From IMG/VR virus record IMGVR_UViG_2609459792_000007: a DNA stretch of 64,000 nt. The stretch is one strand, 5' to 3'. This stretch comes from a virus. Taxonomy: Duplodnaviria > Heunggongvirae > Uroviricota > Caudoviricetes. Positions 7,173 to 32,280 of this stretch are shown here, piece by piece. The position numbers and the translations under genes are program-made. The notes beneath the pieces are model-generated. The model worked only from the letters and a program-made list of their open reading frames with translations, did no database searches and was not told where the DNA came from. The first letter of the stretch is position 1, and the number at the start of each line of letters is the position of its first letter.

Positions 7173-8491
7173 AAAAGTTGATCGCACTTAAGCATAAGCT
7201 GGACGAAATGAAAGCTATGGGAACCAATGCAAAAAAAGAGGCATTGGCCAACATGGATGACTTTGAACAAAGCATGGTTTCATTGATGCTCAACCCTTTC
7301 ATCCGTTTTGGGGTAAAGAAATACAAAGTGGCAGAGCCGCTTAGTGAGTCCGTCCCAAGTGACGAAAAAGCCATTGATGTACTGAATAAGCTGGCCTCTC
7401 GCGAGCTGACGGGGAACGCAGCAATAGTTGCTGTTGAGTCTATCGTAGCGTCAATGTGCGCCGATGGGCAGGACGTGTTCCGTCGTTTCCTCTTAAAAGA
7501 CCCGAAAGCAGGTGTTGGGATTAGCCTATGCAACAAGGTTTTTGAGAATCCCATTCCGAAATTCGAGGTGCAGCTGGCGTCACCGTATAAAGAAAAAGGC
7601 GACAAATACCCCTTCAAGCCAAATCCTAAAGCAAAATGGCCGATGATTGGCAGTCTTAAGCTCGATGGTTTGCGAGTAATTTGCGAGGTTATTGTTGACG
7701 AGGAAGAGGTTAACTTCCTTTCTCGTACTGGTAATCCAATCACGTCTCTCGATCACCTAAAGCCAGCAATGCTCGAATTAGGCAAACTTTCAGGCCACAA
7801 ACACATCTTCTTCGATGGTGAAGGAACAGCCGGTTCATTTAACCAGTCCGTATCTGCATTGCGCAAAAAGAACGTGCAGGCAATTGGCGCTATTTATCAT
7901 GTTTTCGACTTCTTCCTACCGGAATGGCGGGCACAGGCTAAATCCAAAGAGTATGCAAAGACAGGTATGAAGCTGAAAGAGCGCCTGGCTATGCTGGTGG
8001 CGTTGTTCAAAAACGATCGCAGTGAAGGCTACGGACAAGACATTCACCTGCATCCGTTCTATATCATCCATAGCCACGAAGATTTCATCGAACGCTTTAT
8101 GAAACGCCTGGACGATAACGAAGAAGGGGAGATGGGCAAAGATCCGAACTCTGTTTACGAGTTTAAACGTACCCGCAGCTGGTGGAAGTTAAAAGACGAA
8201 GATTCAGAAGATGGTGAAATTATCGACTTTGAGCCGGGCGACCCGGACTCTGGTTTTGCCAACACACTTGGAAAAATTGTTATTCGTCTTGAAAACGGCG
8301 TCATCGTTCGTGCGAGCGGCATTAAGCATAAATATCTGGACGAGATCTGGAACAACAAAGAGAAGTACCGTGGTCGTATTGTTGAGGTTCATTGTCACGA
8401 GAAAACGCCGGATGGCAGCTTACGCCACCCACGACTGAAATGGCCGCGTTGCTTACGCGATACAGAAGATCGAATCGGAGATAAAGAATGA
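7169..8491 (+). CDS. ATP-dependent DNA ligase
   Basis: Adenylation motif KxDG in SLKLDGLRV; size 440 aa. Confidence 0.75.
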   Translation: MKKLIALKHKLDEMKAMGTNAKKEALANMDDFEQSMVSLMLNPFIRFGVKKYKVAEPLSESVPSDEKAIDVLNKLASRELTGNAAIVAVESIVASMCADGQDVFRRFLLKDPKAGVGISLCNKVFENPIPKFEVQLASPYKEKGDKYPFKPNPKAKWPMIGSLKLDGLRVICEVIVDEEEVNFLSRTGNPITSLDHLKPAMLELGKLSGHKHIFFDGEGTAGSFNQSVSALRKKNVQAIGAIYHVFDFFLPEWRAQAKSKEYAKTGMKLKERLAMLVALFKNDRSEGYGQDIHLHPFYIIHSHEDFIERFMKRLDDNEEGEMGKDPNSVYEFKRTRSWWKLKDEDSEDGEIIDFEPGDPDSGFANTLGKIVIRLENGVIVRASGIKHKYLDEIWNNKEKYRGRIVEVHCHEKTPDGSLRHPRLKWPRCLRDTEDRIGDKE

Positions 8492-10081: not shown

Positions 10082-10156
10082 GATGGTGTAGCTCAGCGGT
10101 AGAGCAGTTGGCTGTTAACCAACTGGTCGGTGGTTCGAATCCACCCACCATCGCCA
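10082..10156 (+). tRNA. tRNA-Asn (anticodon GTT)
   Basis: Hand-folded cloverleaf: acceptor gatggtg/caccatc, D-stem gctc/gagc, anticodon stem gttgg/ccaac with loop ctGTTaa, T-arm ggtgg-ttcgaat-ccacc, CCA end. Confidence 0.85.
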
Positions 10157-10161
10157 ATTTA

Positions 10162-10248
10162 GGGGAGTTAGTCCGTAGAGGTAGCGGGGTAGACTGTAAA
10201 TCTACTGTCATGGAGACTCGGGTGGTTCGACTCCATCACTCCCCACCA
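10162..10248 (+). tRNA. tRNA-Tyr (anticodon GTA), long variable arm
   Basis: Acceptor ggggagt/actcccc, anticodon stem gtaga/tctac with loop ctGTAaa, T-arm ggtgg-ttcgact-ccatc, CCA; D-arm not cleanly canonical. Confidence 0.6.
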
Positions 10249-10252
10249 AATT

Positions 10253-17329: not shown

Positions 17330-20300
17330 ATGAAGGCACTGATGGTTCGAACTGACTTCTCACTTGGGGAGTCGGCTCTAAAAGCAGAAAACGCGGTGAA
17401 GATTGCCAGAGAAGCTGGCTACACCGCTGTAATTTCAGCAGATAGCATGAATATTGCGAGCGTTATTCCACTACAACGTGCCGCTGGTGACGACATGGCG
17501 GTTATTTGTGGTGTGAAACTAAACATTGTTGATGATCCCACATACGAGCACCGGGCTAAACTTGCTAAAGAATCTATGAGATGTATGGAATCATTAGAGC
17601 GGGGACGTAACTACTCGTTTACCGCTCTAATTAAAAATGAGCAAGGATATCGCGACATCTGCGAACTAATGACGGCGGCCAACACACGAGAACAGTTCTA
17701 CTTTGTACCGCGTCTCTCGCTCGAACAGTTGGTTTCTACATATGCCAAAGGCAACATCATCCTGCTTACTTCCGACATCGGTAGCGTGTTCCAACGCAAC
17801 GATTTTGCAAAAATCATAAGCACACTGATTACAGCGGGTGGAAAAGACAACTTCTATAGTGTGGTTTATCCGCACCCTACCCCATTCTACGACCAGATTA
17901 ACGTCCGGGCGATGAAAGTCGCCAGCGCATTGAAAATAGAGCCAGTGGCGTTCTATCCCGCTTATTACGAATCGATCGACGATGCAGACATTAAAGACAT
18001 TGCGCACATGGTTACGAACAACATAAAAATCGACCAGCCGCATCGTCTGCGTATCCCCCACCAGCGAGATAACGCCGTCAATGGTCGCCGCCATCTCCTT
18101 GAGGCGCTTAAAGCCTTCTCCGTTCGCATGGATGTGCCGGTAACAGCTGCAATGGCCTCAACAACGCAGGACTCCATTATCGAAGCCTGTACATGGCGCT
18201 GGCATGAATTGCCACCAGCACTGCCCAAGATGGCAGACGACGAGCCTGCAACGCTGATGAAACTGGCTGTTGCAGGGCTGCGCAAACGTCTTACCACAAA
18301 AGAGTTTGGCTACACACCACCGGCTTCTGAGAACAGGGTTTATGTTGAGCGACTTAAGTACGAAATGGACACGCTTACTCGCCTGGGATTTTGTGGTTAC
18401 TTCCTGATGGTACGCGATCTGATGAATCACAGCCGTGAAACTGGCATTCCTGTCGGGCCTGGTCGTGGTTCCTCTGCCGGTTCTCTGGTGGCGTGGTGCA
18501 TAGGCATAACCAACGTCGACCCAATCCGTCACGGTCTTCTGTTTGAGCGTTTCATCAACCCTGAGCGTCTCGACTTGCCGGATGCGGACTTGGACTTCAG
18601 CCAGGCACGTCGCCATGAGGTGATCGAGTATCTGAATGAACGCTACGGCGAAGATTACGTTGCAGGCATTCCGAACTTCACCTACCTGGGCGCAGCCTCT
18701 GCACTACGTGATACCGCTCGTATTTATGGTGTGGAGTCCGCAGATATGGCGGTATCAAAAGAACTGAAGAACGCTGAGGATGATAGCCTTCCATTGGAAG
18801 AACTGCGCGAACAACTGGCAAGTCTCGACAAATACGCAACAAAATATCCTGATGCATTCAATGCAGCCTGCAAGTTACAAAGCCTTATGCGTGGCTTTGG
18901 TAGACATGCGGCAGGGATGATCGTAGCAGGTGTTCCTCTGACAGAACGTACACCGGTTGAGCGCCGTGGTGACGCGCGTTGTATCGCATTTGACAAGCGT
19001 TACTGCGAGGCTATGGGCCTAATTAAGCTGGACGTGCTTGGCCTGGCAACTCTCGATTTGCTCGATAGTGCAAAACGCTACATAAAAGAGAACACAGGTG
19101 AAGATATCAATCTTGATGCCATTTCTCTTGAAGATCGCAAGGTGCTGGATGGTTTTGCTGCTGGGTACACTCAAGGTGTTTTCCAGCTTGAATCAGGCCC
19201 AATGCGCAAGCTGCTTAAAGATTTAGGTGGTGGAATTGAGCCAATGAGCTTTAAAACGGTCGTCGCTACAACTGCGCTCTTCCGGCCGGGGCCAATTCAA
19301 TCAGGCATGTTGGATGACTATGTTTCTGTCGCCAAAGGCTTTATGACGCCGGAATCATTACACCCCGTTCTTGATGAACTTACCGCGGAAACAAATGGCG
19401 TGATTCTCTATCAGGAACAGACGATGAACGCGACTCGATTGCTTGCCGGCTTCACAATGGCTGAAGCTGACGCTGTGCGTTCCGCAATCGGTAAGAAGAA
19501 CATGGAAAAAATGAAGAGCATGGGCGAGAAGTTCATCGTTCAGGCTCAAGCTGGCTGGATAGACGTTGAGCTGGAAGATGGCACTACACAGCGCATTCAC
19601 CGTGCGGAACATTTTAAATGCGAAGACGGAACTCTGAAAACTGTCGAAGAGGCACTTGAGCACGGCGCAAAACTACCTATAAACGCAGTACGCGTTACAG
19701 CGTCACATCCAGGGCTATCAGAGATGAAAGCGAAGGAGATCTGGACCGCATTCGAAAAGAATGGTGCCTACCAGTTCAACAAATCACACTCTGTTGCTTA
19801 CTCCTTAATCAGCTATCAATCTATGTGGTTGAAAACTCATTATCCCGCAGAGTTTTTCGCTGCTGCTCTCACTATTCTTGGCGAAGATAAACACCAGGGG
19901 CTGGTTAAAGATGCGCTGACCTATGGTATTCGCGTATTGCCACCAGACGTTAACGTGTCATCTAACCGAATTGAGATCCGCACGCTTGAAGATGGCAGCC
20001 AGGTGCTGTATGCGCCCTTCTCTGCTGTGAAGGGGTGTTCTGAGAATGGCTGCCAGGCCATCATGAGAGCGCGAGAAAAGGTTGGTGGCAAATTCGAGTC
20101 ACTTGCGCAATTCGAAGAAGCTGTCGAGAAACGTGCCTGTAATAGTCGAGTGCGCGAATCGCTGCAAAAAGTAGGGGCGTTTGCATCCATCGAGCCAGGT
20201 AGTCTGCCAGCAACTGATCCAGAGCGCCTCCGCGACCAGGCAGAATTGATGGGAAACCTTGTCATAGACGCAGTTAAAGCCTCACGTCCGTTTGAGATGA

Positions 20301-20848
20301 ACCCCAAACGATCGGCTGAAATTAACGCACTCATGACACGGATGGCGGCTGAAATGGGCTTAGGTGATGAACTAATCCGCCCCAGCATTGGTATTAAGCC
20401 GAAAATCATGATCATTCTGGACAATGCAAACGGCAATGATGCTCGAACCGGTTACTTCATGGAGAACGGATACGACGATTTTAAGGCCAAGCTGTTGACG
20501 GCTGGAGATTTGCGCATGGGCGATCTCTATGTCACAGGCGTTTGCAAAAAGGTGAAAGACAAAGAAAAGGACTACACCAAAGACGAGATCGGCCAGTTCA
20601 CCGACTTTATGCGTGAAGAGATCAATCTGGTACGTCCGACCTATGTGCTGACGTGTGGCAGTCGGGCAACGGCATTGTTTAACAACAAAAACAAGCCATC
20701 CGATTTAGTCGGTAGGAAGGAGTATCTTCCAGACCTTGACGTTACAGTCTTTTACGGGTTTAACCCCAACATTCTTTACTTCAGACCTGAAGAGGGAGAA
20801 CGACTAGAAGCGATATTAGCCGACGTAGCAGAAACTATTAAGTCGTGA
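17330..20848 (+). CDS. DNA polymerase III alpha-like replicative polymerase (PHP domain)
   Basis: 1172 aa; DnaE-type motif GPGRGSSAGSLVAWCIGIT; N-terminal PHP-like region; conserved cacATG start context. Confidence 0.85.
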   Translation: MKALMVRTDFSLGESALKAENAVKIAREAGYTAVISADSMNIASVIPLQRAAGDDMAVICGVKLNIVDDPTYEHRAKLAKESMRCMESLERGRNYSFTALIKNEQGYRDICELMTAANTREQFYFVPRLSLEQLVSTYAKGNIILLTSDIGSVFQRNDFAKIISTLITAGGKDNFYSVVYPHPTPFYDQINVRAMKVASALKIEPVAFYPAYYESIDDADIKDIAHMVTNNIKIDQPHRLRIPHQRDNAVNGRRHLLEALKAFSVRMDVPVTAAMASTTQDSIIEACTWRWHELPPALPKMADDEPATLMKLAVAGLRKRLTTKEFGYTPPASENRVYVERLKYEMDTLTRLGFCGYFLMVRDLMNHSRETGIPVGPGRGSSAGSLVAWCIGITNVDPIRHGLLFERFINPERLDLPDADLDFSQARRHEVIEYLNERYGEDYVAGIPNFTYLGAASALRDTARIYGVESADMAVSKELKNAEDDSLPLEELREQLASLDKYATKYPDAFNAACKLQSLMRGFGRHAAGMIVAGVPLTERTPVERRGDARCIAFDKRYCEAMGLIKLDVLGLATLDLLDSAKRYIKENTGEDINLDAISLEDRKVLDGFAAGYTQGVFQLESGPMRKLLKDLGGGIEPMSFKTVVATTALFRPGPIQSGMLDDYVSVAKGFMTPESLHPVLDELTAETNGVILYQEQTMNATRLLAGFTMAEADAVRSAIGKKNMEKMKSMGEKFIVQAQAGWIDVELEDGTTQRIHRAEHFKCEDGTLKTVEEALEHGAKLPINAVRVTASHPGLSEMKAKEIWTAFEKNGAYQFNKSHSVAYSLISYQSMWLKTHYPAEFFAAALTILGEDKHQGLVKDALTYGIRVLPPDVNVSSNRIEIRTLEDGSQVLYAPFSAVKGCSENGCQAIMRAREKVGGKFESLAQFEEAVEKRACNSRVRESLQKVGAFASIEPGSLPATDPERLRDQAELMGNLVIDAVKASRPFEMNPKRSAEINALMTRMAAEMGLGDELIRPSIGIKPKIMIILDNANGNDARTGYFMENGYDDFKAKLLTAGDLRMGDLYVTGVCKKVKDKEKDYTKDEIGQFTDFMREEINLVRPTYVLTCGSRATALFNNKNKPSDLVGRKEYLPDLDVTVFYGFNPNILYFRPEEGERLEAILADVAETIKS

Positions 20849-20973: not shown

Positions 20974-21405
20974 ATGATCACCGATATTTACGAGAAAATA
21001 ATGTCTGATCTCGAGTTTGACCGAGACAATCTGGAGGAAGTCTGGCGTAGACAACCCCGCCTTTTAATGGAGTATGGCTCAAAACTCGCTCATGCAGAAA
21101 GAAGTGTCGCAGAGGCAAAACTTAACCTTGAAGCTGTTGAAGCAAAGCTATACGACACAGAGCGTAAGAACTTGAGTATGAACGGCATTAAGTTCAACGA
21201 GTCTGTACTGGACGCTAAGGTTAAAACGAACCCACAGTATCTATCTAAACGGCAGAAGTTGGATGAAGCACGGCACATCGCAGACATATACAAACATGCT
21301 GTCGCCGCCTTCACGCATCGCCGAGACATGATCGTTCAGGCGTCGAAGATGGCCATCGTTGAATTAGAGCGATTAGGCTCTGAACGCTTTATTACTCCCC
21401 GTTGA
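20974..21405 (+). CDS. Hypothetical coiled-coil protein
   Basis: 143-aa ORF; conserved aaaggaaagcacATG start context. Confidence 0.45.
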   Translation: MITDIYEKIMSDLEFDRDNLEEVWRRQPRLLMEYGSKLAHAERSVAEAKLNLEAVEAKLYDTERKNLSMNGIKFNESVLDAKVKTNPQYLSKRQKLDEARHIADIYKHAVAAFTHRRDMIVQASKMAIVELERLGSERFITPR

Positions 21406-21522: not shown

Positions 21523-22551
21523 ATGTCTAAGACATTACTTGATTTGCTTAACAAAACTCGTGAAGACATTGCTGCCAAACGTGGTAACAACGTTGATCTG
21601 ACTCGCTTAAAAGACGGCGTCAACTATATCCGCATCTTCCCGAATAAAGACGACCCAAACGGTAAGTTCTTCCAGACTTTCGGTATGCACTACGTTAAGT
21701 ATCAGAACGAGGAAGGTAAAGAAGCAACCAACGCTTATATTTGTGAGCAACATACTCACGGTCGCGCTTGTCAGCTATGCGAAATGGTTATGGAAGGTCG
21801 CGCTCGTCACAAGGGTAACAAAGCAATGGAAGAACGCATCGGTCAAATGCGTGCCACTCCTCGCTACCTGGTCAACGGCATTCTTTCTGCTCGTGAGGAT
21901 TTCGCAGATGCTGAGAAATGCCAGTTAATCGAGCTACCGTCTACTGTATTCGATGATATCTGCAAAGCAATCACCGAAGACATCGCTGATGATATCGGTA
22001 ATCCACTGAGCAAAGAGGAAGGCTACGCATTCCTGATTAAACGTACTGGCTCTGGTCGCGATACCAAATATGACGTCTCGCCTAAGCGTAAAGTCTACAA
22101 AGGCGATATCGAAGATAAATTCTGGAACACCCAGCATGATCTGATCGCATACGCAAATCAGGCTGATGAAACTCGTCTTCTGTCGACAGTTCGCACTATG
22201 GGTCGTCTGATTGGCATCGCTGCACCAACTGCCGCAGCATCTGCACCAGCAATTTCCTCAACCGCGAAAACATCGGCTGCGGCACTACCTGGATTTGGCT
22301 CTGTCACTGGTCATACGGAGGGTGCGACTGCTGTAGCAACCGCTCACACCCCAGCTTCTGAACCAACCAGTCTGGTTGATGAAGAAATCCTCCGTGCCGT
22401 TGAAACTGAATTTAAACCAGAAGCAAGTTCCGCTGCCGTTGCCGTATCAGTCAAAGAGTCTGAAGCAGTCGCAGCGACATCTGTAGCAACCGCATCTGCG
22501 ACGGAAGATGAAGGTCTGGATGACCTACTGAGAGAGCTGGACTCTCTGTAA
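21523..22551 (+). CDS. gp32-like single-stranded DNA-binding protein
   Basis: His/Cys cluster CEQHTHGRACQLCE (zinc-site-like), Ala/Ser/Thr-rich linker, acidic C-terminal tail DEGLDDLLRELDSL. Confidence 0.5.
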   Translation: MSKTLLDLLNKTREDIAAKRGNNVDLTRLKDGVNYIRIFPNKDDPNGKFFQTFGMHYVKYQNEEGKEATNAYICEQHTHGRACQLCEMVMEGRARHKGNKAMEERIGQMRATPRYLVNGILSAREDFADAEKCQLIELPSTVFDDICKAITEDIADDIGNPLSKEEGYAFLIKRTGSGRDTKYDVSPKRKVYKGDIEDKFWNTQHDLIAYANQADETRLLSTVRTMGRLIGIAAPTAAASAPAISSTAKTSAAALPGFGSVTGHTEGATAVATAHTPASEPTSLVDEEILRAVETEFKPEASSAAVAVSVKESEAVAATSVATASATEDEGLDDLLRELDSL

Positions 22552-22568
22552 TCCCATTACGTGACCAG

Positions 22569-22596
22569 TAAGGCGTCTACGGACGCCTTACTTTTT
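22569..22596 (+). terminator. Terminator after SSB-like gene
   Basis: taaggcgtc-tacg-gacgcctta hairpin plus T5. Confidence 0.6.
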
Positions 22597-22608
22597 GGAA
22601 GGAATGTA

Positions 22609-23556
22609 CCGGTGATTTATCTCTTCGTAGATGGCAATAGCCTGGGTTATTACCACCAACAATCTGACAAATTGCACAACGGCGAAATGGAAGTACAGGC
22701 TGCTTTCGGCTTTGTTAAGAACGTCCGTCGTTATGCCTCCATCCTCCATGCCCGACCTATGATTCTTTGGGATGGATTTAGTGACAAGCGTCGCGACTTT
22801 TACCCGGACTACAAAGCAAATCGCGACGACGATCCTGATATGAAAAAGATGAAGGAAGGCTTTGCTGTCCAGAAGCCATACATCCTCAAAATGATGACCG
22901 CGCTTGGTGTTAACCAAATCATTGCAAAAGATGCAGAAGCGGATGATCTGGCCGGGCTGCTGGTATCCCGCATGGCACCGCAGCCAACCGTTGAACACAT
23001 CTATCTGTTAACAGGCGATAGCGACTGGCTTCAGTTAGTTCGTGAAAACGTAAGCTGGGTAAGCCTGCGTGAAGACGCCAAAAACAAGCAGGTTAATTTT
23101 GAGCAATTTGCGGAGCTGACAGGATTCGCCACGCCTCGCGCATTTTTGGAAGCAAAAGCATTACAAGGCGATAACTCGGACAACATTAGCGGTGTTGGAG
23201 GCATTGGTGCTGGCGGTGCGAAAGAGCTGCTGCATGAATGGGGAAGTGTCGCAACGATGGTACGCGGCATCAACGACGGCTCAATCGTGGTTAATAAAGG
23301 GCGTCATAAGACCGCCTTCAACAAACTAGCGAAGAATGCCTTCAACGAGAAAACAGGCTGTCGAATGCTCGAAGCGTTCAAGAGAAACATCACGCTAATG
23401 AACCTGATTGAGACGAAGTTTCCGCCTACCGAAATCGAAACAATCAAAGGCAATCGTGACGTGAAAGCATTCGAGCAACTGTGCTACGAGCTGAATTTCC
23501 GTTCGTTCCTTGAAGACCTTGAAGTGTTTGTTCTTCCATTCGAAAGGTATTGCTAA
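22609..23556 (+). CDS. 5'-3' exonuclease / flap endonuclease (PIN plus H3TH)
   Basis: N-terminal IYLFVDGNSLGYY; H3TH-like GDNSDNISGVGGIGAGGAKELL; GTG start at 22609 follows RBS ggaagga (track start 22561 lies inside the terminator). Confidence 0.75.
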   Translation, partial: PVIYLFVDGNSLGYYHQQSDKLHNGEMEVQAAFGFVKNVRRYASILHARPMILWDGFSDKRRDFYPDYKANRDDDPDMKKMKEGFAVQKPYILKMMTALGVNQIIAKDAEADDLAGLLVSRMAPQPTVEHIYLLTGDSDWLQLVRENVSWVSLREDAKNKQVNFEQFAELTGFATPRAFLEAKALQGDNSDNISGVGGIGAGGAKELLHEWGSVATMVRGINDGSIVVNKGRHKTAFNKLAKNAFNEKTGCRMLEAFKRNITLMNLIETKFPPTEIETIKGNRDVKAFEQLCYELNFRSFLEDLEVFVLPFERYC

Positions 23557-23824: not shown

Positions 23825-24898
23825 ATGGCAAAAGGAAAATCCGCACTGGCACTTGCTCTGAAAAAGAAAATCGGTAGCAACGACGAAATTCAGAAAGTAA
23901 CTCATTGGATTGACACAGGCTTTCCTCCGTTAAACAAAGCTATTTCCGGTCGTTACGATGGCGGTTTCCCATGTGGTCGTATCGTAGAAGTATTCGGGCC
24001 GCCAAGCGCGGGGAAAACCTTTTTGGCAACAGCAGCAATGATCTCCGCTCAGAAACAAGATGGTCTGGCGGTATTCCTCGATCATGAGAACAGTTTTGAC
24101 GTTGGCCTGGCGGTAGCCAATGGCTTGAATGCAGATGAGGATGACGGTCAGTGGGTATACAAGCAGCCAGATACCTTCGAAGACTCTGTAGAGTTGATCG
24201 GCACAATACTTAAATTGGTACGTGATGAAGAGCTTATCCCTGAATCAGCACCTATCTGTATCGTGGCTGACTCACTTGCGTCTATGGTTCCGAACTCCAA
24301 AGCCGAGAAGTTCGAAAAGATGGCTGAAGGCACTGCTAAAGACAAAGATCAGCTAAACATGAACGACAATACGGCGCTTGCTCGTGCGACGAGCGCAAAC
24401 TTCCCCACTCTGGCTTTGTGGGCACGCAAATATAACGCCTGCATTATTTTCTTGAATCAGGTTCGCACAAAAATCGGTGTAATGTTTGGCGACCCTACGA
24501 CGTCGCCAGGCGGCGATTCACCGAAGTTTTACGCTTCTGTGCGCATCCGTCTCGGTGCATCGGTGATGAAGGATGGTAAAGAGAAGATCGGTCAGGACGT
24601 AGGCGCAGAGTGCATCAAAAACAAAGTTGCACCACCGTATGGCAAGTGCACCTGGAAATTCTACTTCGATCCTACTCGTGGCCTCGACGTTATCGAATCG
24701 CTCGTCGAGTACATGCTGGAAGAAGGATACCTGCCAAAGAACGCCAGCGGTCGAGTAGAAATTGGTGACAAGAAATACACCAAATCACAGATCGTCGAGA
24801 TGTATCGGGAGAAGCCACTAGCTGAAATCATTGCGGCTTTACAGGCAATCGACGACCGGAGATCAAAAGACAATCCCACCGAGTCAGTAGAAGAGTAA
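23825..24898 (+). CDS. RecA-like recombinase
   Basis: Walker A GPPSAGKTFLA; RecA-like core VEVFGPPSAGKT...FLDHENSFD. Confidence 0.8.
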   Translation: MAKGKSALALALKKKIGSNDEIQKVTHWIDTGFPPLNKAISGRYDGGFPCGRIVEVFGPPSAGKTFLATAAMISAQKQDGLAVFLDHENSFDVGLAVANGLNADEDDGQWVYKQPDTFEDSVELIGTILKLVRDEELIPESAPICIVADSLASMVPNSKAEKFEKMAEGTAKDKDQLNMNDNTALARATSANFPTLALWARKYNACIIFLNQVRTKIGVMFGDPTTSPGGDSPKFYASVRIRLGASVMKDGKEKIGQDVGAECIKNKVAPPYGKCTWKFYFDPTRGLDVIESLVEYMLEEGYLPKNASGRVEIGDKKYTKSQIVEMYREKPLAEIIAALQAIDDRRSKDNPTESVEE

Positions 24899-25194: not shown

Positions 25195-26025
25195 ATGAAG
25201 AAAGGTTTACTTGCAGTTGCTCTGGCGGCTATTTGCACAATGGGTCTTACTGGCTGTGATCGCGTAGAGCCTGGATACGTTGGCATCAAAGTAAACAAAT
25301 TAGGTGAAGACAAAGGGATTGGTGAAGTGGTTGGCGTTGGTCGCCAATGGACAGGTCTTAACACCGAACTTTACGTATTCCCGACCTTCAAACAAATGAA
25401 GACCTACGACGAGCCGTTCACATTCCAGATGAGTGACGGTACTGCTATTGGTCACAAAATTGGCGTTGCGTATCTGGTTAATCGTGACAAGGTAACGACG
25501 GTGTTCCAGACCTATCGCAAAGGCGTAGACGATATCACCGAATCAGATCTGCGTCAGAAAATTGCCGACTCTCTAAACCGTTTGGCCAGCCGTATGACCA
25601 CTGACTCATTTATCGACGGTGGTAAGGCACAATTGTTGGACAACGCACTGAAAGATATTCAGAAAGAGATGTCTCCGGTTGGTATTGAGGTACTGAGCCT
25701 GTCATGGGTTGGAAAGCCTGATTACCCAAAAACCGTCATTGAATCTATCAACGCCAAAGTAACGGCTAACCAGCGTACTCTGCAACGTCAGCAGGAAGTC
25801 GAACAGCGTAAAGCTGAGGCGAATATGCTGCGTGAACAGGCTAATGGTGAAGCTGATGCTATCCGTGCTCGTGCGCAAGCAGAAGCAGACGCCATTCGTC
25901 TGCGCGGTGAAGCTCTGCGTCAAAACCCGAACGTTATGGAACTGGAAGCCATCAATAAATGGAATGGCCAGTTACCGCAGTACATGACTCAAGGGGCTAA
26001 CACTCCTTTCATTACAGTGAAATAA
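25195..26025 (+). CDS. SPFH/band-7 (prohibitin-like) lipoprotein
   Basis: Signal peptide with lipobox LTGC; SPFH-like core; C-terminal Ala/Glu/Arg-rich coiled coil. Confidence 0.55.
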   Translation: MKKGLLAVALAAICTMGLTGCDRVEPGYVGIKVNKLGEDKGIGEVVGVGRQWTGLNTELYVFPTFKQMKTYDEPFTFQMSDGTAIGHKIGVAYLVNRDKVTTVFQTYRKGVDDITESDLRQKIADSLNRLASRMTTDSFIDGGKAQLLDNALKDIQKEMSPVGIEVLSLSWVGKPDYPKTVIESINAKVTANQRTLQRQQEVEQRKAEANMLREQANGEADAIRARAQAEADAIRLRGEALRQNPNVMELEAINKWNGQLPQYMTQGANTPFITVK

Positions 26026-26043
26026 CTCTCTTTAAGAAGATCA

Positions 26044-26066
26044 GGCGTCCAGTTGGACGCCGTTTT
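26044..26066 (+). terminator. Terminator after SPFH gene
   Basis: ggcgtcc-agtt-ggacgcc hairpin plus T-run. Confidence 0.6.
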
Positions 26067-26120
26067 ATTCTCGTTATTATCACATACAAGAAAACAATTT
26101 GTTAAAAGGTAAAGTTAATT

Positions 26121-26945
26121 ATGCCCAACCACATTACAAACGAAATCCGAGTCATAGGTGGTACAAATAAACAACGCTTAGATTTCATACGTGCCATAAC
26201 TAACAAAAAAGGTCTAATTGACTTTAATACCATTTGCAGACGTCCGAAAAGTATAGAAATGGAAGAAAACAATCATATCAGGCGCATGGCCTCTGCAATG
26301 GCGGGCGAAACAGTTTACGACTACATGTTCGGTGAATTAAAGACTCCAGAACAGGTCGAATTAGCTATGCGTGAATCTGGAATGACACGCAAGGAAATTC
26401 GCAAAATCAAAGAGCAGGCTCTTATGCGGCTTGAGAATTATCGTCGCTATGGCTATTACTCATGGTTTGACTGGTCGCGAGCTAATTGGGGAACAAAATG
26501 GAATGCCTACAACATCGAAATGCCCGTAAAACGTATCCCTACACGTATTAAGTACGGCCATAATTTCCGCCATACACACATTCGAGCATATGCAAAACGA
26601 ATCTATAAAAAACGTCTTGCAAGACATGCCGCAACTGGTGGTGAGTTGGTGATTCGCTTTGAAACAGCCTGGTCTATGCCAAAACCAATTTATCAAGCGA
26701 TGGCTAGAAAGTTCCCGCACCTTGAGTTTGTAATACGTTATGCAGACGAAGACTTCGGCAATAACTGCGGATTCATTTTACTTCGCAACGGCAAATGGGA
26801 ATATGACTACATTGCACCGGCGAATAACGAACAATCGTCAGAAGAAAAAATCAAATGGCGCAAGTTCGCCTTTGAGTTATGTTGTCCTGGTATCACTCCA
26901 CAAGAATACGGTCTAAATGAAGAATACGAATACGCCGGATATTAA
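26121..26945 (+). CDS. Hypothetical protein (Trp-rich, basic)
   Basis: 274-aa ORF in AT-rich island; no confident family assignment. Confidence 0.45.
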   Translation: MPNHITNEIRVIGGTNKQRLDFIRAITNKKGLIDFNTICRRPKSIEMEENNHIRRMASAMAGETVYDYMFGELKTPEQVELAMRESGMTRKEIRKIKEQALMRLENYRRYGYYSWFDWSRANWGTKWNAYNIEMPVKRIPTRIKYGHNFRHTHIRAYAKRIYKKRLARHAATGGELVIRFETAWSMPKPIYQAMARKFPHLEFVIRYADEDFGNNCGFILLRNGKWEYDYIAPANNEQSSEEKIKWRKFAFELCCPGITPQEYGLNEEYEYAGY

Positions 26946-26990
26946 AGAATTGTCATTTGGCTTTACGCTCGAAGCATAGTGGTTAAGAAG

Positions 26991-27731
26991 ATGAAAAGAA
27001 AAATTGAAGAACCAAAAACGACACTTAATAAACATGGGGAAAAAATTCAAACACACCCAGCGTTCGGTCTTGTGAAAACAAGCCGTGTTAGCACGACTGG
27101 CATTCGTCTATTTGATTCAGAACTGGAACATAGAGACTATATTGAAATAGGCGTTTACGAGGCTGAACTGTCCTTAGACAATGAACGAACCCGGCCACAA
27201 AGGAGTAGCAATAGACGGCCTTTAGTTGAAATTAGACTTAGCCAGGCACAATGGGCTGCTATGGTTAGCAGTTTTGGTGTGGGCGAAGGTGTGCCATGCA
27301 CTATTTCATATAAAACCATTGGCGACTCAATTAGAGTTCATGATATTGCCGAGCAAAAAAGTATTCGGCAAAAATTCAACGATCAAATAAAGGCAGCTAC
27401 GAATAGTGAGATTGATCGACTTAATCAGCAAGTTTCAGAGCTAGGTGAGCTTGTGAAAAAAGGAAGAGCTGGAAAACGTGACCTTGAAGAACTATATAGA
27501 AAACTTGCATCTGCTGTAGCTAACCTTCCTGAAAATCTGTGCTTTGCTACCGAATTAATGCAGGAGCAAATGGATGAAATTGTCTCATCTGGAAAGGCGG
27601 AGATTGAGGCGTATGTTGCAGGCACTGTTATGCGTAAAGGGTTAGCAGCATTAGGCACAGAATCATGCATTAACGATGATCCTACTGTCTCTATCACCAA
27701 AATGGAAAGCGGTAAAGAATTACTGCCATAA
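26991..27731 (+). CDS. Hypothetical protein
   Basis: ORF; ATG at 26991 preferred over GTG at 26979. Confidence 0.4.
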   Translation: MKRKIEEPKTTLNKHGEKIQTHPAFGLVKTSRVSTTGIRLFDSELEHRDYIEIGVYEAELSLDNERTRPQRSSNRRPLVEIRLSQAQWAAMVSSFGVGEGVPCTISYKTIGDSIRVHDIAEQKSIRQKFNDQIKAATNSEIDRLNQQVSELGELVKKGRAGKRDLEELYRKLASAVANLPENLCFATELMQEQMDEIVSSGKAEIEAYVAGTVMRKGLAALGTESCINDDPTVSITKMESGKELLP

Positions 27732-27751
27732 ATGCATCTGAGGTACTGACA

Positions 27752-28141
27752 ATGCTTTTAATTCAACCTGGTTTCGGTTTAAAGATAAAAAAAGGGCATA
27801 TGTTTGGTGAGCGAGATTCCAAACGAAAAATTCTGTCTATTCGATTACCATTTATCACCATTCATTGGTTAAACAGAGAGTCAACCGATTATTGGTATAA
27901 ATGCGCAAGAGCAGCATTTAACGACCCTGACTGGTTTGTAGAAAATCACCACGCGGTTCGTCAGGCAAAAAGAAAGGCTAATACGACATATATGAAGGCA
28001 TATCAGGATGCCTGGGAAGAACATCGTGGCCGATACCAAAAAAACATTGAAAAACTTGAATCAGAAAATATGGACCTAAGAAGAAAACTCGGTGAAGCAC
28101 GTCGAGACATCGAAGCATATAAACGTCTTGTATCGGAGTGA
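27752..28141 (+). CDS. Hypothetical protein with C-terminal coiled coil
   Basis: 129-aa ORF; start uncertain (alternative ATG at 27797). Confidence 0.35.
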   Translation: MLLIQPGFGLKIKKGHMFGERDSKRKILSIRLPFITIHWLNRESTDYWYKCARAAFNDPDWFVENHHAVRQAKRKANTTYMKAYQDAWEEHRGRYQKNIEKLESENMDLRRKLGEARRDIEAYKRLVSE

Positions 28142-28143
28142 AT

Positions 28144-28278
28144 ATGACTTTACGTTGTTTTTTCAAAGGGCATAGTTTTTCACTATACAGAAACAGAAAT
28201 AATAATGGGGCATTCTACATATGTAGTAAATGTGGGAGGACAAAATATCTTCCAGATGTCAAATTTGAAGGTCCTTAA
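28144..28278 (+). CDS. Small Cys-rich (zinc-ribbon-like) ORF
   Basis: 44-aa ORF below track cutoff: C-x4-H ... C-x2-C (CFFKGH...CSKCG); starts 3 bp after the previous stop. Confidence 0.3.
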   Translation: MTLRCFFKGHSFSLYRNRNNNGAFYICSKCGRTKYLPDVKFEGP

Positions 28279-28304
28279 ATGTTTGCATTAAATGGGCAAT
28301 ACAG

Positions 28305-28721
28305 ATGATCACAACAGACTTTTCTAAATTAAGTGATTTTGAAATTAACAGACGAGTATGTGAGGCTTTAGATATGGAGGAGTATTTCTTCATACCTGAT
28401 GACGAAGCAAATTTCGATTCGGAGATCCCCACTGACGAAAGAGGTCCTGTTTGGCAGACGTCAAAAAGGGATATTAATGGCTTCCGTGCTTCAAACGGAA
28501 ATTGCTTCAATCCTTGCAACAACCCGGCGGACGCAAAGCCTATTATCGTAGAGAACAGAATTGGCATTATTCCTGCGCCAGAAAATGGATTATGGAAGGC
28601 TGCGCATAGAAAGATTGGTAACGATAATACTCCATACCATATGACTCAAAATGTAAATCCACTCCGCGCCGCCATGATTGTCTTTCTGATGATGAAAGAA
28701 AGTGAGAGTTGTACCGATTAA
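28305..28721 (+). CDS. Hypothetical protein
   Basis: 138-aa ORF in AT-rich island; contains FNPCNNPADAKPIIVENRI. Confidence 0.4.
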   Translation: MITTDFSKLSDFEINRRVCEALDMEEYFFIPDDEANFDSEIPTDERGPVWQTSKRDINGFRASNGNCFNPCNNPADAKPIIVENRIGIIPAPENGLWKAAHRKIGNDNTPYHMTQNVNPLRAAMIVFLMMKESESCTD

Positions 28722-29020
28722 TGAATATATACGATTTTTTTAAAAAACCTAACACATGTGTCAGAAAAGGGTATAGACCGTCAGTCATCGATTGCTGGTC
28801 GCTATCAGCAAATAATCTCAACAATGTATTCAAAATGCATTGGGAGTTTCTTTGTGAAGCGCGCGGCGTTCTCGACATGACAGTCAGAGAAGCAATTATC
28901 TGGATTCTTTGGTTTCCGGTAAGAACATTTATGACTCTGACGTACCCATTTATCTTCTGGATTTGGGGAACCGTCCTTTATTTCATATTAAAAGGAGAAG
29001 TAAAACATGGCAGCAATTAA
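28721..29020 (+). CDS. Small membrane protein
   Basis: ATG overlaps previous stop (TAATG); hydrophobic segments IIWILWFPV and LTYPFIFWIWGTVLYFIL. Confidence 0.4.
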   Translation: MNIYDFFKKPNTCVRKGYRPSVIDCWSLSANNLNNVFKMHWEFLCEARGVLDMTVREAIIWILWFPVRTFMTLTYPFIFWIWGTVLYFILKGEVKHGSN

Positions 29021-29432
29021 GAAACTCTACGATGCCGCAAACGCGGCTCTGGATGTTATTGATGATGAAGTATCAAAAGGCTTTCCTGAACCTGATTGGG
29101 CGCATCAACTACGAAATGCTATCGCCGAAATGAATCCACCAGATCCGACCACCGACGAGACAGACTGGCAGCGATTTATCCGTATGTACGCTCAGGAAAT
29201 AGGTCCAACGCCAACGGCAGAGCAAGCAATGCTGCTGAAATACTTCAAAGAGGCGGGAGAGGATTTACCAATTGATGACTCAGCATATTGGTTCCACTGC
29301 GCATGGCGTAAGTATGACGTGATATTCACACAAGGCATGGGGAGCAAAGATATGGTTGTGTGGCATCTACTCCATATAGACACAGCCGTTGACAGAGTCA
29401 TTGAACAGTTTTTCCCTAAACAAGAAGATTGA
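29007..29432 (+). CDS. Hypothetical protein
   Basis: 141-aa ORF with RBS aaaggag. Confidence 0.45.
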   Translation: MAAIKKLYDAANAALDVIDDEVSKGFPEPDWAHQLRNAIAEMNPPDPTTDETDWQRFIRMYAQEIGPTPTAEQAMLLKYFKEAGEDLPIDDSAYWFHCAWRKYDVIFTQGMGSKDMVVWHLLHIDTAVDRVIEQFFPKQED

Positions 29433-29487
29433 TCGCCTATTCATAACTAACAAAATAAGTAAACACTAACCACAAAAGGAAAAACAC

Positions 29488-29763
29488 ATGAGAGTTTTAG
29501 TTCGAATCGTTACCAGCACTGTCTATGACGTGTTTCCGCTTTTTATGGTCAAAGCCGATGGTCTTAACGACGAAGAAACTGACGCGCTGATCCAGCGTAT
29601 TCTCGTTGAATATACAGGTCATGACGCTGATTCAGTGATGGTTGATGATGATGGTGTTTGTTGGCATAACGGCAACTGTTGGTACGTAGAAGAGACTCAA
29701 CAAATCAGTGATGAAGATGCCGCACATCTTGAGCGTATTTTAAGCATCAGCACTTTTGAGTGA
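29488..29763 (+). CDS. Hypothetical acidic small protein
   Basis: 91 aa; conserved aaaaggaaaaacacATG start context. Confidence 0.45.
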   Translation: MRVLVRIVTSTVYDVFPLFMVKADGLNDEETDALIQRILVEYTGHDADSVMVDDDGVCWHNGNCWYVEETQQISDEDAAHLERILSISTFE

Positions 29764-29978
29764 GTTTACAGTAAAATTTATATAAGTTAGTATCTACCTA
29801 TCATGAAGATTTTTATTGAATACTTGTTACTCATCGTGTCAATAGCTTTTGTCATCGACTGCATTTTCACTGGTGTCATTCGTAAAGTCTTTTCCCCGGT
29901 GAACGACGTAGTCATAAACGCTTTGGCTATCGTGCTCGTATTTAATTCAGCATTTGATGTAATCAAAGAGGTGGCAGC

Positions 29979-30314
29979 ATGAAGGCCATCCCATTTGCGC
30001 TGTTGTTCCTTTCTTCGATCGTTGTGGCCGACACCACTGTTTATCAGTGTGAAATGTCTGTAGCCGACGTTAAGAATGGCGCTCTTACCGACGTCATAAA
30101 AGCACCATATGGAGCGATGGTCGTAGACAGCGGCGACCAGTTCTATGTTGTGCGTGACGATCGAGTGTTGTCATCCCCATATCTCACAAATCGTAATGGC
30201 AAATTAACCGGCGTCGGAGAAGACCACTTCGTATACAACAAATACAAGGGCTTCTATGGCGTTCACGCTTCTCAGCAAAGCTACCTTTTCGATGACTGCA
30301 AGGAGGTTGGATAA
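29979..30314 (+). CDS. Secreted small protein (signal peptide)
   Basis: N-terminal MKAIPFALLFLSSIVVA signal-like segment; two Cys. Confidence 0.45.
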   Translation: MKAIPFALLFLSSIVVADTTVYQCEMSVADVKNGALTDVIKAPYGAMVVDSGDQFYVVRDDRVLSSPYLTNRNGKLTGVGEDHFVYNKYKGFYGVHASQQSYLFDDCKEVG

Positions 30315-30526: not shown

Positions 30527-30569
30527 TAGCACCAACCACTGCGGTGAGTAGTCTACTCACCGCATTCGT

Positions 30570-31012: not shown

Positions 31013-31015
31013 GGG

Positions 31016-32071: not shown

Positions 32072-32099
32072 TCCAAATGTCTCTTGTTATTCGACGGCT

Positions 32100-32240: not shown

Positions 32241-32280
32241 ATGTCTGAAGGCAGATGGCACAACGGTTTGAGGTGGGCGG

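Follow-up and report, generated by a model that had tools for sequence, protein, structure and literature searches.

The locus analysed here raises the question of what a 1172-aa DnaE-type polymerase does in an element that also carries a RepA plasmid replicon, and with which partners it would operate. The polymerase gene is located in a stretch of 64,000 nucleotides (hereafter the window) which, judged by sequence comparison, is part of a phage-plasmid of E. coli of the well-known SSU5/pHCM2/pECOH89 type. Database comparison of the window gave nucleotide identities of 97-98% to pECOH89, phage PhiR41_1 and CMS-2020a, and 784 plasmid records match it. The open reading frames were compared to the Pfam, PHROGs and NCBIfam profile libraries, with cut-offs of E <= 0.01 for Pfam and the main PHROGs scan and of 0.001 to 0.1 in the other scans. 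The helicase, primase, ligase, single-stranded DNA-binding protein, flap nuclease, RNase H and RepA listed in the original prediction were all recovered by Pfam, NCBIfam or RefSeq (Table 1), and a largely self-contained replication and recombination set, added to a RepA/iteron plasmid replicon, is supported.

Table 1. Replication, recombination and nucleotide-supply features of the window, with the domains of the polymerase.
Feature	Coordinates	Strand	Basis or remark
DnaB-like replicative helicase	3172-4512	+	Pfam DnaB_C, NCBIfam phage_DnaB; RefSeq of near-identical records concurs
DnaG/Toprim-type primase	4522-5775	+	Pfam DNAG_N, Toprim_2; TIGR01391; records name DNA primase
ATP-dependent DNA ligase	7169-8491	+	Pfam DNA_ligase_A_M, E 1.1e-12
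CobT-like VWA protein	13711-15819	+	Pfam and NCBIfam matches
CobS-like AAA_5/MoxR ATPase	15915-17150	+	Pfam and NCBIfam matches
DnaE-type (C-family) DNA polymerase, 1172 aa	17330-20848	+	Pfam, NCBIfam; phrog_405 end to end
PHP domain (aa 1-300)	17330-18229	+	Metal-binding His motif lost (M5, R7)
Palm and fingers (aa 309-740)	18254-19549	+	Pfam, E 8.8e-74 and 7.8e-44
Lineage-specific beta-rich insertion (aa 743-797)	19556-19720	+	Absent from E. coli DnaE and distant relatives
(HhH)2 domain, counterpart of the alpha 'beta-binding' domain (aa 798-960)	19721-20209	+	Pfam HHH_6 aa 866-955; FNKSH motif conserved
Interdomain motif R-x-x-D-Q-x-E-L-[ML]-P-G-[LVI] (aa 963-977; QAELM 970-974)	20216-20260	+	Conserved
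Family-4 UDG-fold domain (aa ~980-1172), in place of OB fold and tau-binding domain	20267-20845	+	TIGR00758, E 2.8e-7
143-aa ORF, possible UvsY-like recombination mediator	20974-21405	+	phrog_2058 (function unknown); weak phrog_231 (UvsY-like), E 1.8e-4
gp32-type single-stranded DNA-binding protein	21523-22551	+	Pfam gp32, E 1.7e-66
5'-3' flap exonuclease (FEN / Pol I 5' nuclease type)	22561-23556	+	Pfam 5_3_exonuc_N, 5_3_exonuc
RecA/UvsX-like recombinase	23825-24898	+	Pfam RecA, E 2.3e-42
Plasmid replicon, repA 31016-32071 (-)	30725-32635	-	RefSeq 'replication protein RepA'
Mre11-like phosphoesterase	33714-34799	+	RefSeq metallophosphoesterase
Rad50/SbcC-like ATPase	35029-36945	+	NCBIfam Rad50/SbcC
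RuvC-like Holliday junction resolvase	37688-38257	+	phrog_159, E 3e-57
dNTP supply: NrdA, NrdB, PRA-PH-like pyrophosphohydrolase, ThyA, DHFR, nucleotide kinase	38331-45649	+	RefSeq of 98.5% identical plasmid; Pfam, NCBIfam
139-aa ORF abutting the dnaQ-like gene, possible exonuclease partner	45711-46130	+	phrog_5373, function unknown
DnaQ/epsilon-like DEDDh 3'-5' exonuclease, 185 aa, catalytic domain only	46140-46697	+	Pfam RNase_T, E 1.1e-20
RNase HI	49390-50034	+	Pfam RNase_H, E 7.7e-44

The polymerase reading frame is uninterrupted and its product displays the domain order PHP, palm, fingers, beta mini-domain, HhH and UDG fold. Pfam places PHP at aa 6-176, DNA_pol3_alpha at 309-571, DNA_pol3_finger at 574-740 and HHH_6 at 866-955; identity to E. 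coli DnaE is 33%. The AlphaFold model of the full-length protein (pLDDT 90.1) has its best PDB matches in the Pol III alpha subunits of Taq, M. tuberculosis and E. coli (E 1e-60 to 1e-53). Annotation of the PHP, fingers, OB and clamp-motif regions revealed an intact DnaE core and the absence of the OB fold. Residues D418, D420 and D568 correspond by alignment to the catalytic D401, D403 and D555 of E. coli, and this triad is invariant in 43 relatives. The dN/dS ratio measured against SSU5 is 0.041 overall and at most 0.071 for each domain. Such invariance and purifying selection argue against a degenerate, non-catalytic copy, and a catalytically intact polymerase is supported at the sequence level. 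The PHP domain appears to be non-catalytic: the HxH positions are occupied by His in none of the 43 family members, and the counterparts of E. coli H12, D69 and H83 in the alignment are R7, K63 and K77. The beta-rich insertion that follows the fingers is predicted by AlphaFold to form four strands, one helix and a fifth strand. In many relatives two ORFs stand in place of one, divided at this site: the N-terminal halves (785-792 aa) stop and the C-terminal halves (379-396 aa) start at the insertion. Many Klebsiella and Enterobacter relatives have this two-ORF form (about 787 and 386 aa).

The enzyme is not the plain Pol III alpha-type polymerase that had been predicted, since a UDG fold takes the place of the tau-binding C-terminal domain and of the OB fold. 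Searched by sequence against the PDB, this region has family-4 UDGs as its four best hits; its AlphaFold model reaches a pLDDT of 93.4 and Foldseek returned 4ZBX (E 1.1e-11, TM 0.73/0.80). Timinskas et al. (2014, NAR 42:1393, PMC3919608) described the same exchange in the copies from Y. pestis and S. enterica, and the finding, although real, is largely ordinary and already known because this UDG-tail architecture is in the literature. The 'DnaEX' UDG variant of that work, which comprises the SSU5/pHCM2/pMT1/pECOH89-type DnaE, belongs to the same family and has the same architecture, a PF03167-type UDG domain replacing OB and CTD. Nucleotide identity of the polymerase gene is 84.7% to SSU5 and 98% to pECOH89; nothing essential differs, the window copy being the fused 1172-aa form. 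With E. coli Pol III alpha (DnaE1) and epsilon (DnaQ), the phage system has in common the PHP/palm/fingers/(HhH)2 core, the Asp triad, an inactive PHP domain and a separate DEDDh exonuclease. Unlike E. coli alpha, the phage polymerase has no OB fold, tau-binding domain or QADMF and bears a 55-aa beta insertion after the fingers; unlike epsilon, the phage exonuclease has neither clamp motif nor alpha-binding tail; and, unlike E. coli, the element encodes no theta, tau, delta, delta' or beta.

Taking the explanation as a whole, we consider it probable that the ORF specifies the catalytic subunit of a replicase that the phage-plasmid itself supplies for its lytic cycle. The replication and recombination module would have been inherited from a clade of siphoviruses of ~105-120 kb and would comprise the DnaB-like helicase, the DnaG-like primase, ligase, the CobT/CobS-like pair, DnaE, gp32, FEN, RecA/UvsX, Mre11/Rad50, RuvC and RNR/ThyA/DHFR, with DnaQ further on. 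Since the polymerase has a normal DnaE core but a PHP domain that is non-catalytic, its proofreading would come in trans from the 185-aa DnaQ-like exonuclease specific to the clade. During lysogeny, low-copy upkeep would be ensured by the separate RepA/iteron (IncFIB-type) replicon and ParA, with the host replisome doing the copying; once induced, the element would switch to the phage module, probably replicating in a recombination-dependent, T4-like manner. This reading builds on what was observed of gene content and domain architecture, on the conservation of catalytic residues, on purifying selection and on clade-wide co-occurrence and synteny; the literature searched yielded no biochemical or genetic data on the polymerase or any member of its clade.

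The replication module is collinear with that of virulent phages of ~110 kb, such as Pseudomonas phage nickie, and of metagenomic relatives. The CobT/CobS-like pair, directly 5' of the polymerase, keeps its upstream position in distant relatives. The RepA/iteron block forms an insertion of ~8.8 kb into this otherwise collinear module, between recA and mre11, where nickie and the metagenomic relatives are devoid of it. Iteron arrays flank repA (30725-31012 and 32109-32635), with repeats of the form CTCTATAGTGGAT spaced by 21 bp, and a near-identical plasmid is typed IncFIB. Given such a block within a module collinear with virulent phages, the two replication modes proposed originally are reasonable, with a division of labour that would follow the scheme above. 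Cyrano, a related phage-plasmid, has a copy number of ~5.5 per cell, and ciprofloxacin induces it 39-fold (PMC9928086).

The original prediction had recognised no clamp or clamp loader, and the homolog search agrees. No such family was matched by Pfam, PHROGs or NCBIfam in the window ORFs of at least 100 aa, most of which were covered, each by at least one library, the others being named in RefSeq, in near-identical records, as unrelated proteins. Annotation of the other ~45 kb of a near-identical element lists none either, nor does that covering 36.7-112 kb (about two thirds) of the genome of the distant virulent relative nickie. The phage DnaE could be a host-dependent replicase, tethered by a host beta clamp that the host DnaX complex loads, an alternative that these absences favour and that we regard as possible though doubtful. 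DnaE-type replication of a 110-kb genome in the absence of any clamp would be unusual. The hosts of the clade span alpha-, beta- and gamma-proteobacteria, among which the beta-clamp pocket is conserved, and this was counted in favour of a host clamp. The near-invariant Q-x-E-L-[ML]-P-G-[LVI] (R966 in 40, Q970 in 41 and L973 in 34 of the 43 sequences), the sole clamp-motif-like match within the polymerase, lies between HhH and the next domain, at the topological place of QADMF in E. coli alpha. However, QADMF itself aligns with NALMT of the polymerase, at a site variable across the family, and the Q970 motif aligns with the stretch RAALMNSL of E. coli alpha. The motif is predicted to be helical, and its pLDDT, 72-74 when the construct is modelled in isolation, climbs to 89-90 within the full-length protein, which points to a packed structural element and not to a free peptide. 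Since the tau-binding domain is replaced by the UDG fold, coupling to the host clamp loader via tau would have no identifiable binding domain, and its loss leaves no identifiable route into the host Pol III holoenzyme; the OB fold is missing as well, and the DnaQ-like protein is devoid of the epsilon clamp motif QTSMAF. With neither a tau-binding domain nor a canonical clamp motif, the sequence lends no support to the predicted reliance on a host clamp and loader. The polymerase might use the host beta clamp, although nothing positive points to it, or might depend on a cryptic processivity factor hidden among ORFs that have no assignment; any processivity mechanism proposed here is an inference.

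Under the preferred reading of a phage-encoded lytic replicase, the UDG fold would most likely serve as a DNA-binding or template-handling domain and not as a repair enzyme. An active DNA glycosylase, perhaps of altered specificity, would couple excision of uracil or modified bases to synthesis, as in the SPO1-/SP15-like A-family phage polymerases; this we hold to be improbable. The complete family-4 fold is predicted with high confidence, is under strong purifying selection (dN/dS 0.026) and keeps the acidic residue of motif A (D1031 in 39 of 43 sequences), with the CxxC and third Cys present in 17 of 43 family members. Motif B, N-P-[GN], resembles that of MUG-type enzymes, and residual or altered glycosylase activity is possible because of this motif and of the retained Asp. 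Against it, the canonical motif-B His is found in none of the 43 sequences (N, S or T there) and the canonical Asn of 'TNVVKC' is likewise found in none (A, S, G or T there). The Fe-S cysteines are missing from the SSU5 lineage, window copy included, and Pfam UDG gave no match to the polymerase reaching E 0.01. Fusions of UDG to phage PolA are on record in active form and, in the N4-like enzymes, in catalytically dead form (bioRxiv 10.1101/2025.03.26.645540). Like both the N4-like (inactive) and SPO1-/SP15-like (active) A-family polymerases of that study, the window enzyme fuses a family-4-type UDG fold to a replicative polymerase, and it shares with the N4-like group the loss of the canonical UDG catalytic residues. 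Unlike these fusions, it is a C-family polymerase whose UDG is C-terminal and replaces DNA-binding domains, the A-family UDG being an N-terminal addition. A UDG-fold protein is also part of the ring-clamp-free poxvirus replicase, E9 with D4 (UDG)-A20 (known for the family and cited in PMC4889955), where D4, an active family-1 UDG and a protein of its own, is linked through A20 to a B-family polymerase, whereas the phage fold is fused to a C-family enzyme. A processivity role of the phage UDG fold may be hypothesized.

The predicted DnaQ-like exonuclease was found with its DEDDh residues kept: D9, E11, D99, H155 and D160 align with the catalytic residues of E. coli epsilon. It matches phrog_192, 'DNA polymerase exonuclease subunit', at 9e-51 and is 40-44% identical in distant relatives. 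Its gene lies 25.3 kb downstream of the polymerase, and a separation of ~25 kb recurs in both relatives measured, SSU5 and nickie. This position amid nucleotide-metabolism genes, the missing C-terminal alpha-binding and clamp-binding segments of epsilon, and scores (71.5 bits, against 196) that reach none of the NCBIfam epsilon cut-offs would suit a free-standing nuclease devoted to recombination, to primer or end processing or to host DNA degradation, fidelity then coming from elsewhere or being low. We find this distinctly improbable, as polymerase and exonuclease genes occur together in 31 of 31 complete phage genomes (the best 31 matches of the exonuclease query), a trans proofreader is expected from the loss of the PHP His ligands, and the best-scoring families are epsilon, the PolC exonuclease and the above PHROG. 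The distant DnaQ-like protein is very probably the partner of the polymerase, judging from sequence, the evidence for physical pairing being co-occurrence. The 139-aa ORF that abuts the gene weakly resembles the ORF directly upstream of nickie dnaQ (25% identity over 99 aa, E 9e-6).

It is highly improbable that the gene, instead of encoding the replicase, is a decaying passenger or specifies an error-prone or repair enzyme of the DnaE2 type: DnaE2 represents about two thirds of plasmid-borne C-family polymerases (Timinskas et al., PMC3919608) and the protein, at 679.8 bits, misses the 1002-bit equivalog cut-off of DnaE1, but it scores only 401 bits on the DnaE2 model, sits within the conserved replisome gene order of virulent phages, is accompanied by no second replicative polymerase in the annotated phage regions examined, combines invariant catalytic residues with a dN/dS of 0.04, and keeps the same 1172-aa length in clusters P0007 and P0008 (98-99% identity; 4,369 member sequences in total).

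The lytic module resembles the T4 recombination-dependent set (gp32, UvsX, UvsY, gp46/47, RNase H, ligase) by its gp32-like SSB, RecA/UvsX-like recombinase, weak UvsY-like ORF, Mre11/Rad50-like proteins, FEN, RNase H and ATP ligase. Unlike T4, it employs a DnaE-type polymerase in place of PolB, together with DnaB/DnaG-like helicase and primase, and has no gp45 or gp44/62 homologues. In two metagenomic relatives, an ORF of 144-169 aa is found right after the polymerase and ahead of gp32, at the place of the UvsY-like candidate.

The frame encoding the 1172-aa DnaE-type polymerase is uninterrupted, as originally predicted, and the domain annotation suggested at that time located the PHP, palm, fingers and HhH domains. 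Pfam assigns PHP to aa 6-176 (PF02811, E 5e-13), DNA_pol3_alpha to aa 309-571 (PF07733, E 8.8e-74), the fingers to aa 574-740 (PF17657, E 7.8e-44) and HHH_6, the (HhH)2 duplex-binding domain, to aa 866-955 (PF14579, E 1.7e-16). Together with a Pol-beta-like palm displaying three catalytic aspartates, this architecture is that of the C-family enzymes of DnaE type. Residues D418, D420 and D568 are the counterparts of E. coli D401, D403 and D555 and are invariant in an alignment of 43 members of the polymerase family. Compared to its homologue in the Salmonella phage SSU5, the polymerase displays a dN/dS of 0.041 overall and of at most 0.071 in any single domain. A degenerate copy, which would have contradicted the original prediction, is therefore ruled out by the invariant catalytic residues and the low dN/dS. 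Among the NCBIfam DnaE models, only the superfamily model TIGR00594 passes its cut-off (631 versus 434 bits), the DnaE1 equivalog NF004226 scoring 679.8 bits, below the curated cut-off of 1002. Histidine is found at neither HxH position of the PHP domain (0 of 43 relatives); the metal-binding histidines are lost and this domain would not be expected to act as a metal-dependent exonuclease. Judging from the sequence, the polymerase is predicted to be active but non-canonical.

The original label of Pol III alpha-type polymerase applies to the DnaE core and its catalytic aspartates and fails at the C-terminus, where the OB fold and the tau-binding domain have been exchanged for a UDG fold. The tau-binding C-terminal domain was not found, the matching DnaE profiles (PRK05673, TIGR00594, PRK06826) all ending by aa 955 and their best stretches at aa 743-955. 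The OB fold gave no match in Pfam or NCBIfam searches of the polymerase, for which a family-4 UDG fold is predicted over the last ~190 aa, up to the end of the protein. A weak family-4 UDG match is reported by NCBIfam at aa 1053-1168 (E 2.8e-7), and the best four matches of the C-terminal 206 aa to PDB sequences are all family-4 UDGs. An AlphaFold model of aa 960-1172 (pLDDT 93.4) superposes on family-4 UDGs and UdgX (Foldseek E 1e-11, TM 0.73/0.80) and displays the alpha/beta UDG fold, the matches 4ZBX, 1VK2, 1L9G and 1UI0 ranging from E 1e-11 to 8e-11 with TM-scores of 0.67-0.73 (query normalized) and 0.74-0.80 (target normalized). In a full-length model (pLDDT 90.1), the core matches the Taq, M. 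tuberculosis and E. coli alpha subunits and the tail separately matches UDGs. Since the DnaE profiles stop by aa 955 and the tail resembles UDGs in both sequence and predicted structure, the OB fold and tau-binding domain are considered to be replaced by this fold. Only six fragments were retrieved when homologues of the C-terminal 213 aa were sought by word index, and an exhaustive search of representatives and the full-length query were used instead. The exchange is mentioned in one sentence of Timinskas et al. 2014 (PMC3919608), with regard to the copies from Y. pestis and S. enterica; other documented polymerase-UDG fusions concern A-family phage polymerases. The domain swap has already been published, as has the gene set, and neither is new as an observation. 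The polymerase constitutes a natural experiment, in which a Pol III alpha core lacks the domains linking it to the holoenzyme of the cell and carries a UDG fold in their place.

Family-4 UDGs were defined by motif A GE(A/G)PG, an Asn preceding KCRPP, the histidine of motif B HP(S/A) and the four Cys ligands of a 4Fe-4S cluster. The catalytic motifs are missing from the window, which displays LDNAN, T-G-V-C-K-K and F-N-P-N at the motif A, Asn and motif B sites, respectively. Across the 43 sequences, the canonical Asn position is occupied by A, S, G or T (41) or by W or F (2) and never by N, the motif-B His position by N, S or T (42) or I (1) and never by H, and the motif-A Glu is changed to Asp in 39. 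The 4Fe-4S ligand set is not present either: the window is devoid of CxxC, which is kept in 17 of the 43 sequences, all distant relatives, and is absent from the SSU5 lineage, and the KC cysteine occurs in only two. The UDG-fold domain is under strong purifying selection (dN/dS 0.026). By analogy with N4-like PolA, the most economical reading would be that the domain has a conserved function other than that of a glycosylase, either binding DNA or handling the template; some uracil-excision activity of the predicted domain is possible.

The absence of a recognizable clamp or clamp loader, part of the original prediction, is borne out by a profile search of the window ORFs and by the annotation of relatives. 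No profile match to a sliding clamp (beta, gp45, PCNA) or a loader (DnaX, HolA, HolB, gp44, gp62, RFC) was obtained in the window ORFs scanned; Pfam, PHROGs and NCBIfam together covered most window ORFs of at least 100 aa, each by at least one library, and the remaining ORFs are named in the RefSeq annotation of near-identical records as unrelated proteins. In a near-identical plasmid, the RefSeq annotation of the other ~45 kb lists structural, partition and small unassigned genes only, without clamp or loader, and none is annotated at 36.7-112 kb of nickie, a distantly related virulent Pseudomonas phage. A very divergent clamp, beyond the reach of sequence profiles, is possible. As cryptic clamps, ORF 55075-55779 (pI 4.78) was rejected for want of any PDB match, and ORF 5851-6633 because it has close homologues only and is helix-rich by eye; the latter also displays no clear homology to the nickie ORF at the corresponding position. 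The acidic 269-aa protein encoded next to the DnaQ-like gene was likewise dismissed, its N-terminal half being acidic and of low complexity and its sequence having no PDB match of note; a DNA-mimicking or anti-defence function is possible for this protein.

The dependence on the host clamp loader that had been inferred from this absence is undercut by the domain swap, which removed the tau-binding domain. Coupling to the host loader via tau is without structural basis, while use of the host clamp by the polymerase is possible. Where E. coli-type alpha has its internal clamp-binding motif after the HhH domain (QADMF / QL[SD]LF), the residues aligned with E. coli QADMF are NALMT, and this region is variable across the family. 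The sole string resembling a clamp motif in the polymerase, QAELM(G/P)(N/G)L at aa 970-977, fits a loose pattern and aligns with the stretch RAALMNSL of E. coli alpha. It belongs to a nearly invariant motif, R-x-x-D-Q-x-E-L-[ML]-P-G-[LVI], at the HhH-UDG junction (aa 963-977). A helix is predicted for this motif, whose pLDDT of 72-74 in the isolated construct increases to 89-90 when the full-length protein is modeled; such a pattern points to a packed structural element, although a role in clamp binding is possible. Whether the polymerase still requires the host clamp would, if known, indicate the degree of modularity of C-family replicases.

The DnaQ-like protein retains the Exo I, Exo II and Exo III-epsilon motifs of DEDDh exonucleases, D9, E11, D99, H155 and D160 aligning with the catalytic residues of epsilon, and matches Pfam RNase_T (E 1e-20). 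Its best NCBIfam epsilon match, NF004316, reaches 71.5 bits versus an equivalog cut-off of 196. The protein ends at aa 185, and neither the epsilon clamp motif QTSMAF nor the C-terminal segment binding alpha (PHP) was found in it. Where epsilon has residues 182-243 stands a short tail (KYGFFKLPSEIV), kept in the clade with the conserved consensus G-[FL]-F-K-x-P-x-[DE]-I. The polymerase C-terminal domain is encoded in 31 complete phage genomes (4 Escherichia, 2 Salmonella, 6 Klebsiella, 6 Pseudomonas, 10 Rhizobium, 2 Stenotrophomonas and 1 Xanthomonas), and the closest exonuclease homologues are present in every one of them. These genomes account for the best 31 matches of a search with the exonuclease, the identities being 40-44% in distant relatives. 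The separation of ~25 kb between the two genes is also observed in SSU5 and nickie. Their co-occurrence provides good evidence that the polymerase and the DnaQ-like exonuclease form a functional pair, and they may interact physically. The 139-aa ORF preceding the exonuclease gene has a weak homologue directly upstream of nickie dnaQ; its product may associate with the exonuclease as an accessory subunit, in the way that theta or HOT does with epsilon.

A bolder reading, to which we give a low probability, is that the UDG fold would act as a built-in DNA-tracking or processivity module, with the clade-specific DnaQ-like exonuclease and its 139-aa neighbor as candidate partners, and that no ring clamp, loader or tau would be needed for the replication of ~110 kb. 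If true, the system would be the bacterial-virus counterpart of the poxvirus D4(UDG)-A20-E9 complex and a clamp-independent form of Pol III-type replicase.

In terms of gene content, the description of the element as a self-contained replisome is confirmed. The other replication genes originally listed were all found in the window by profile matches, RepA being identified by the RefSeq annotation of a near-identical plasmid. The module further comprises a RecA/UvsX-like recombinase, a weak UvsY-like ORF, a RuvC-like resolvase, Mre11- and Rad50-like proteins, NrdAB, ThyA, DHFR and a nucleotide kinase. Such a collection of accessory functions is reminiscent of the recombination-dependent replication machinery of T4.

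Coordinates of the replication genes and neighboring features of the window
Feature	Coordinates	Strand	Remarks
ORF, 255 aa	1338-2105	minus	LEM-3-like GIY-YIG nuclease domain; between parA and helicase region
DnaB-like helicase	3172-4512		profile matches
DnaG/Toprim primase	4522-5775		profile matches; 417 aa, adjoins helicase
ATP ligase	7169-8491
Four tRNA genes	10082-10639		Asn-GTT, Tyr-GTA, Thr-TGT, Ser-TGA
CobT-like VWA protein and CobS-like AAA_5/MoxR ATPase	13711-17150		directly upstream of polymerase
DnaE-type polymerase	17330-20848	plus	1172 aa
Beta mini-domain of polymerase	19556-19720	plus	aa 743-797
gp32-type SSB	21523-22551		Pfam
Flap nuclease	22561-23556		Pfam
RecA/UvsX-like recombinase	23825-24898		1074 nt
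Block containing RepA	25195-33459		SPFH protein, DUF1281-like protein, NinX-like protein, DUF7238, RepA and iterons
RepA	31016-32071	minus	iterons spaced 21 bp on either side
ORF, 139 aa	45711-46130	plus	9 nt upstream of DnaQ-like gene
DEDDh exonuclease (DnaQ-like)	46140-46697	plus	185 aa
Acidic ORF, 269 aa	46858-47667		pI 4.27; directly 3' of DnaQ-like gene; matches phrog_5235
RNase HI	49390-50034
Small Toprim protein	60511-61035		174 aa; PHROG 'DNA primase' families (phrog_849, E 3e-53)
ApbC/Mrp-type Fe-S carrier ATPase	61635-62735	minus	chromosomal-looking
Basic ORF, 330 aa	62950-63942	minus	pI 10.0; after apbC; no Pfam match

The window is part of a phage-plasmid of the SSU5/pHCM2 type, as indicated by its near-identity and collinearity with known phages and IncFIB plasmids. 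The polymerase gene is 97-98% identical at the nucleotide level to those of Escherichia phages CMS-2020a and PhiR41_1 and of plasmid pECOH89, and 84.7% identical to that of SSU5. A second stretch of 25 kb is 98-99% identical to IncFIB-typed plasmids of E. coli and Shigella, with which it is collinear. Over two large stretches of the window, pECOH89, PhiR41_1 and numerous E. coli plasmids display nucleotide identities of 97-99%. Plasmid functions are represented by RepA with its iterons and ParA, and phage structural genes fill the remainder of the element. Plasmid records matching the polymerase gene number 784; they come from Klebsiella, Escherichia, Enterobacter, Yersinia and Salmonella and are nearly all typed non-mobilizable. 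A detailed account of the group is given by Pfeifer et al. 2021 (PMC7969092).

The genome of nickie is linear, 112 kb in length, and encodes a polymerase 35% identical to that of the window. It reproduces the gene order of ~2379-46697: helicase, primase, ligase, CobT, CobS, DnaE, SSB, FEN, RecA, Mre11, Rad50, RuvC, NrdA, NrdB, ThyA, DHFR, kinase and DnaQ. Metagenomic relatives keep the order as far as it falls within 10 kb of their polymerase gene. In these relatives and in nickie, mre11 follows recA after one to three small ORFs, whereas in the window an inserted block of ~8.8 kb containing RepA, iterons and accessory genes separates the two genes. From its position, this block looks like an insertion serving the plasmid lifestyle. 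Because relatives devoid of the RepA block are collinear, the replisome is interpreted as the lytic machinery of the phage and the RepA/iteron replicon as an add-on for the plasmid-prophage state. As in iteron plasmids, this replicon would use the host replisome. The two replication modes originally proposed would accordingly be provided by a RepA/iteron replicon added to a module collinear with that of virulent phages. The related phage-plasmid Cyrano is present at ~5.5 copies per cell and is induced 39-fold by ciprofloxacin (PMC9928086), which by analogy would be consistent with two states. SSU5-type phage-plasmids are frequent in clinical Enterobacteriaceae, some carrying CTX-M-15, and the switch from low-copy maintenance to lytic amplification is therefore of practical interest.

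Several loci of the module vary among relatives. The polymerase is encoded as two ORFs (~787 and 380-390 aa) in many Klebsiella and Enterobacter phage-plasmids and many metagenomic clusters, the break falling in the beta mini-domain. The C-terminal halves all begin with an MK[IV]xx[IV] strand, corresponding to strand 786-793 here. The split-intein DnaE of cyanobacteria is interrupted near this site; an intein was rejected as the cause of the split genes since the half lengths sum to that of the fused form and the termini inspected were devoid of intein motifs. The recA-like gene extends to 2340 nt in some near-identical plasmids and phages (1451-3790 in locus L003); these alleles are annotated as LAGLIDADG homing endonuclease, which suggests that they may contain an intein. 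The small Toprim protein is distinct from the primase encoded beside the helicase.

The CobT/CobS-like pair is kept upstream of the polymerase in the relatives' loci L007, L010, L012, L013 and L014, where the polymerase C-terminal domain is only ~30% identical, and in L010 the stop codon of the ATPase gene adjoins the start of the polymerase gene. A role as a DnaE-specific loader or chaperone was considered for the pair; CobS homologues, however, are common in T4-like cyanophages as well, whose polymerase is PolB, with gp45 and gp44/62. The link of CobS/CobT to DnaE is conserved but non-exclusive.

Further differences from near-identical plasmids were observed. The four tRNA genes lie within a 2.4-kb stretch without long ORFs, whereas two (Thr, Asn) are reported for pECOH89. 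The 330-aa ORF, very basic, occupies the position after apbC where a near-identical Shigella plasmid carries metG. At the position of the GIY-YIG ORF, pECOH89 carries a DUF2971 gene on the opposite strand; this position is therefore a variable slot, possibly one for homing endonucleases.
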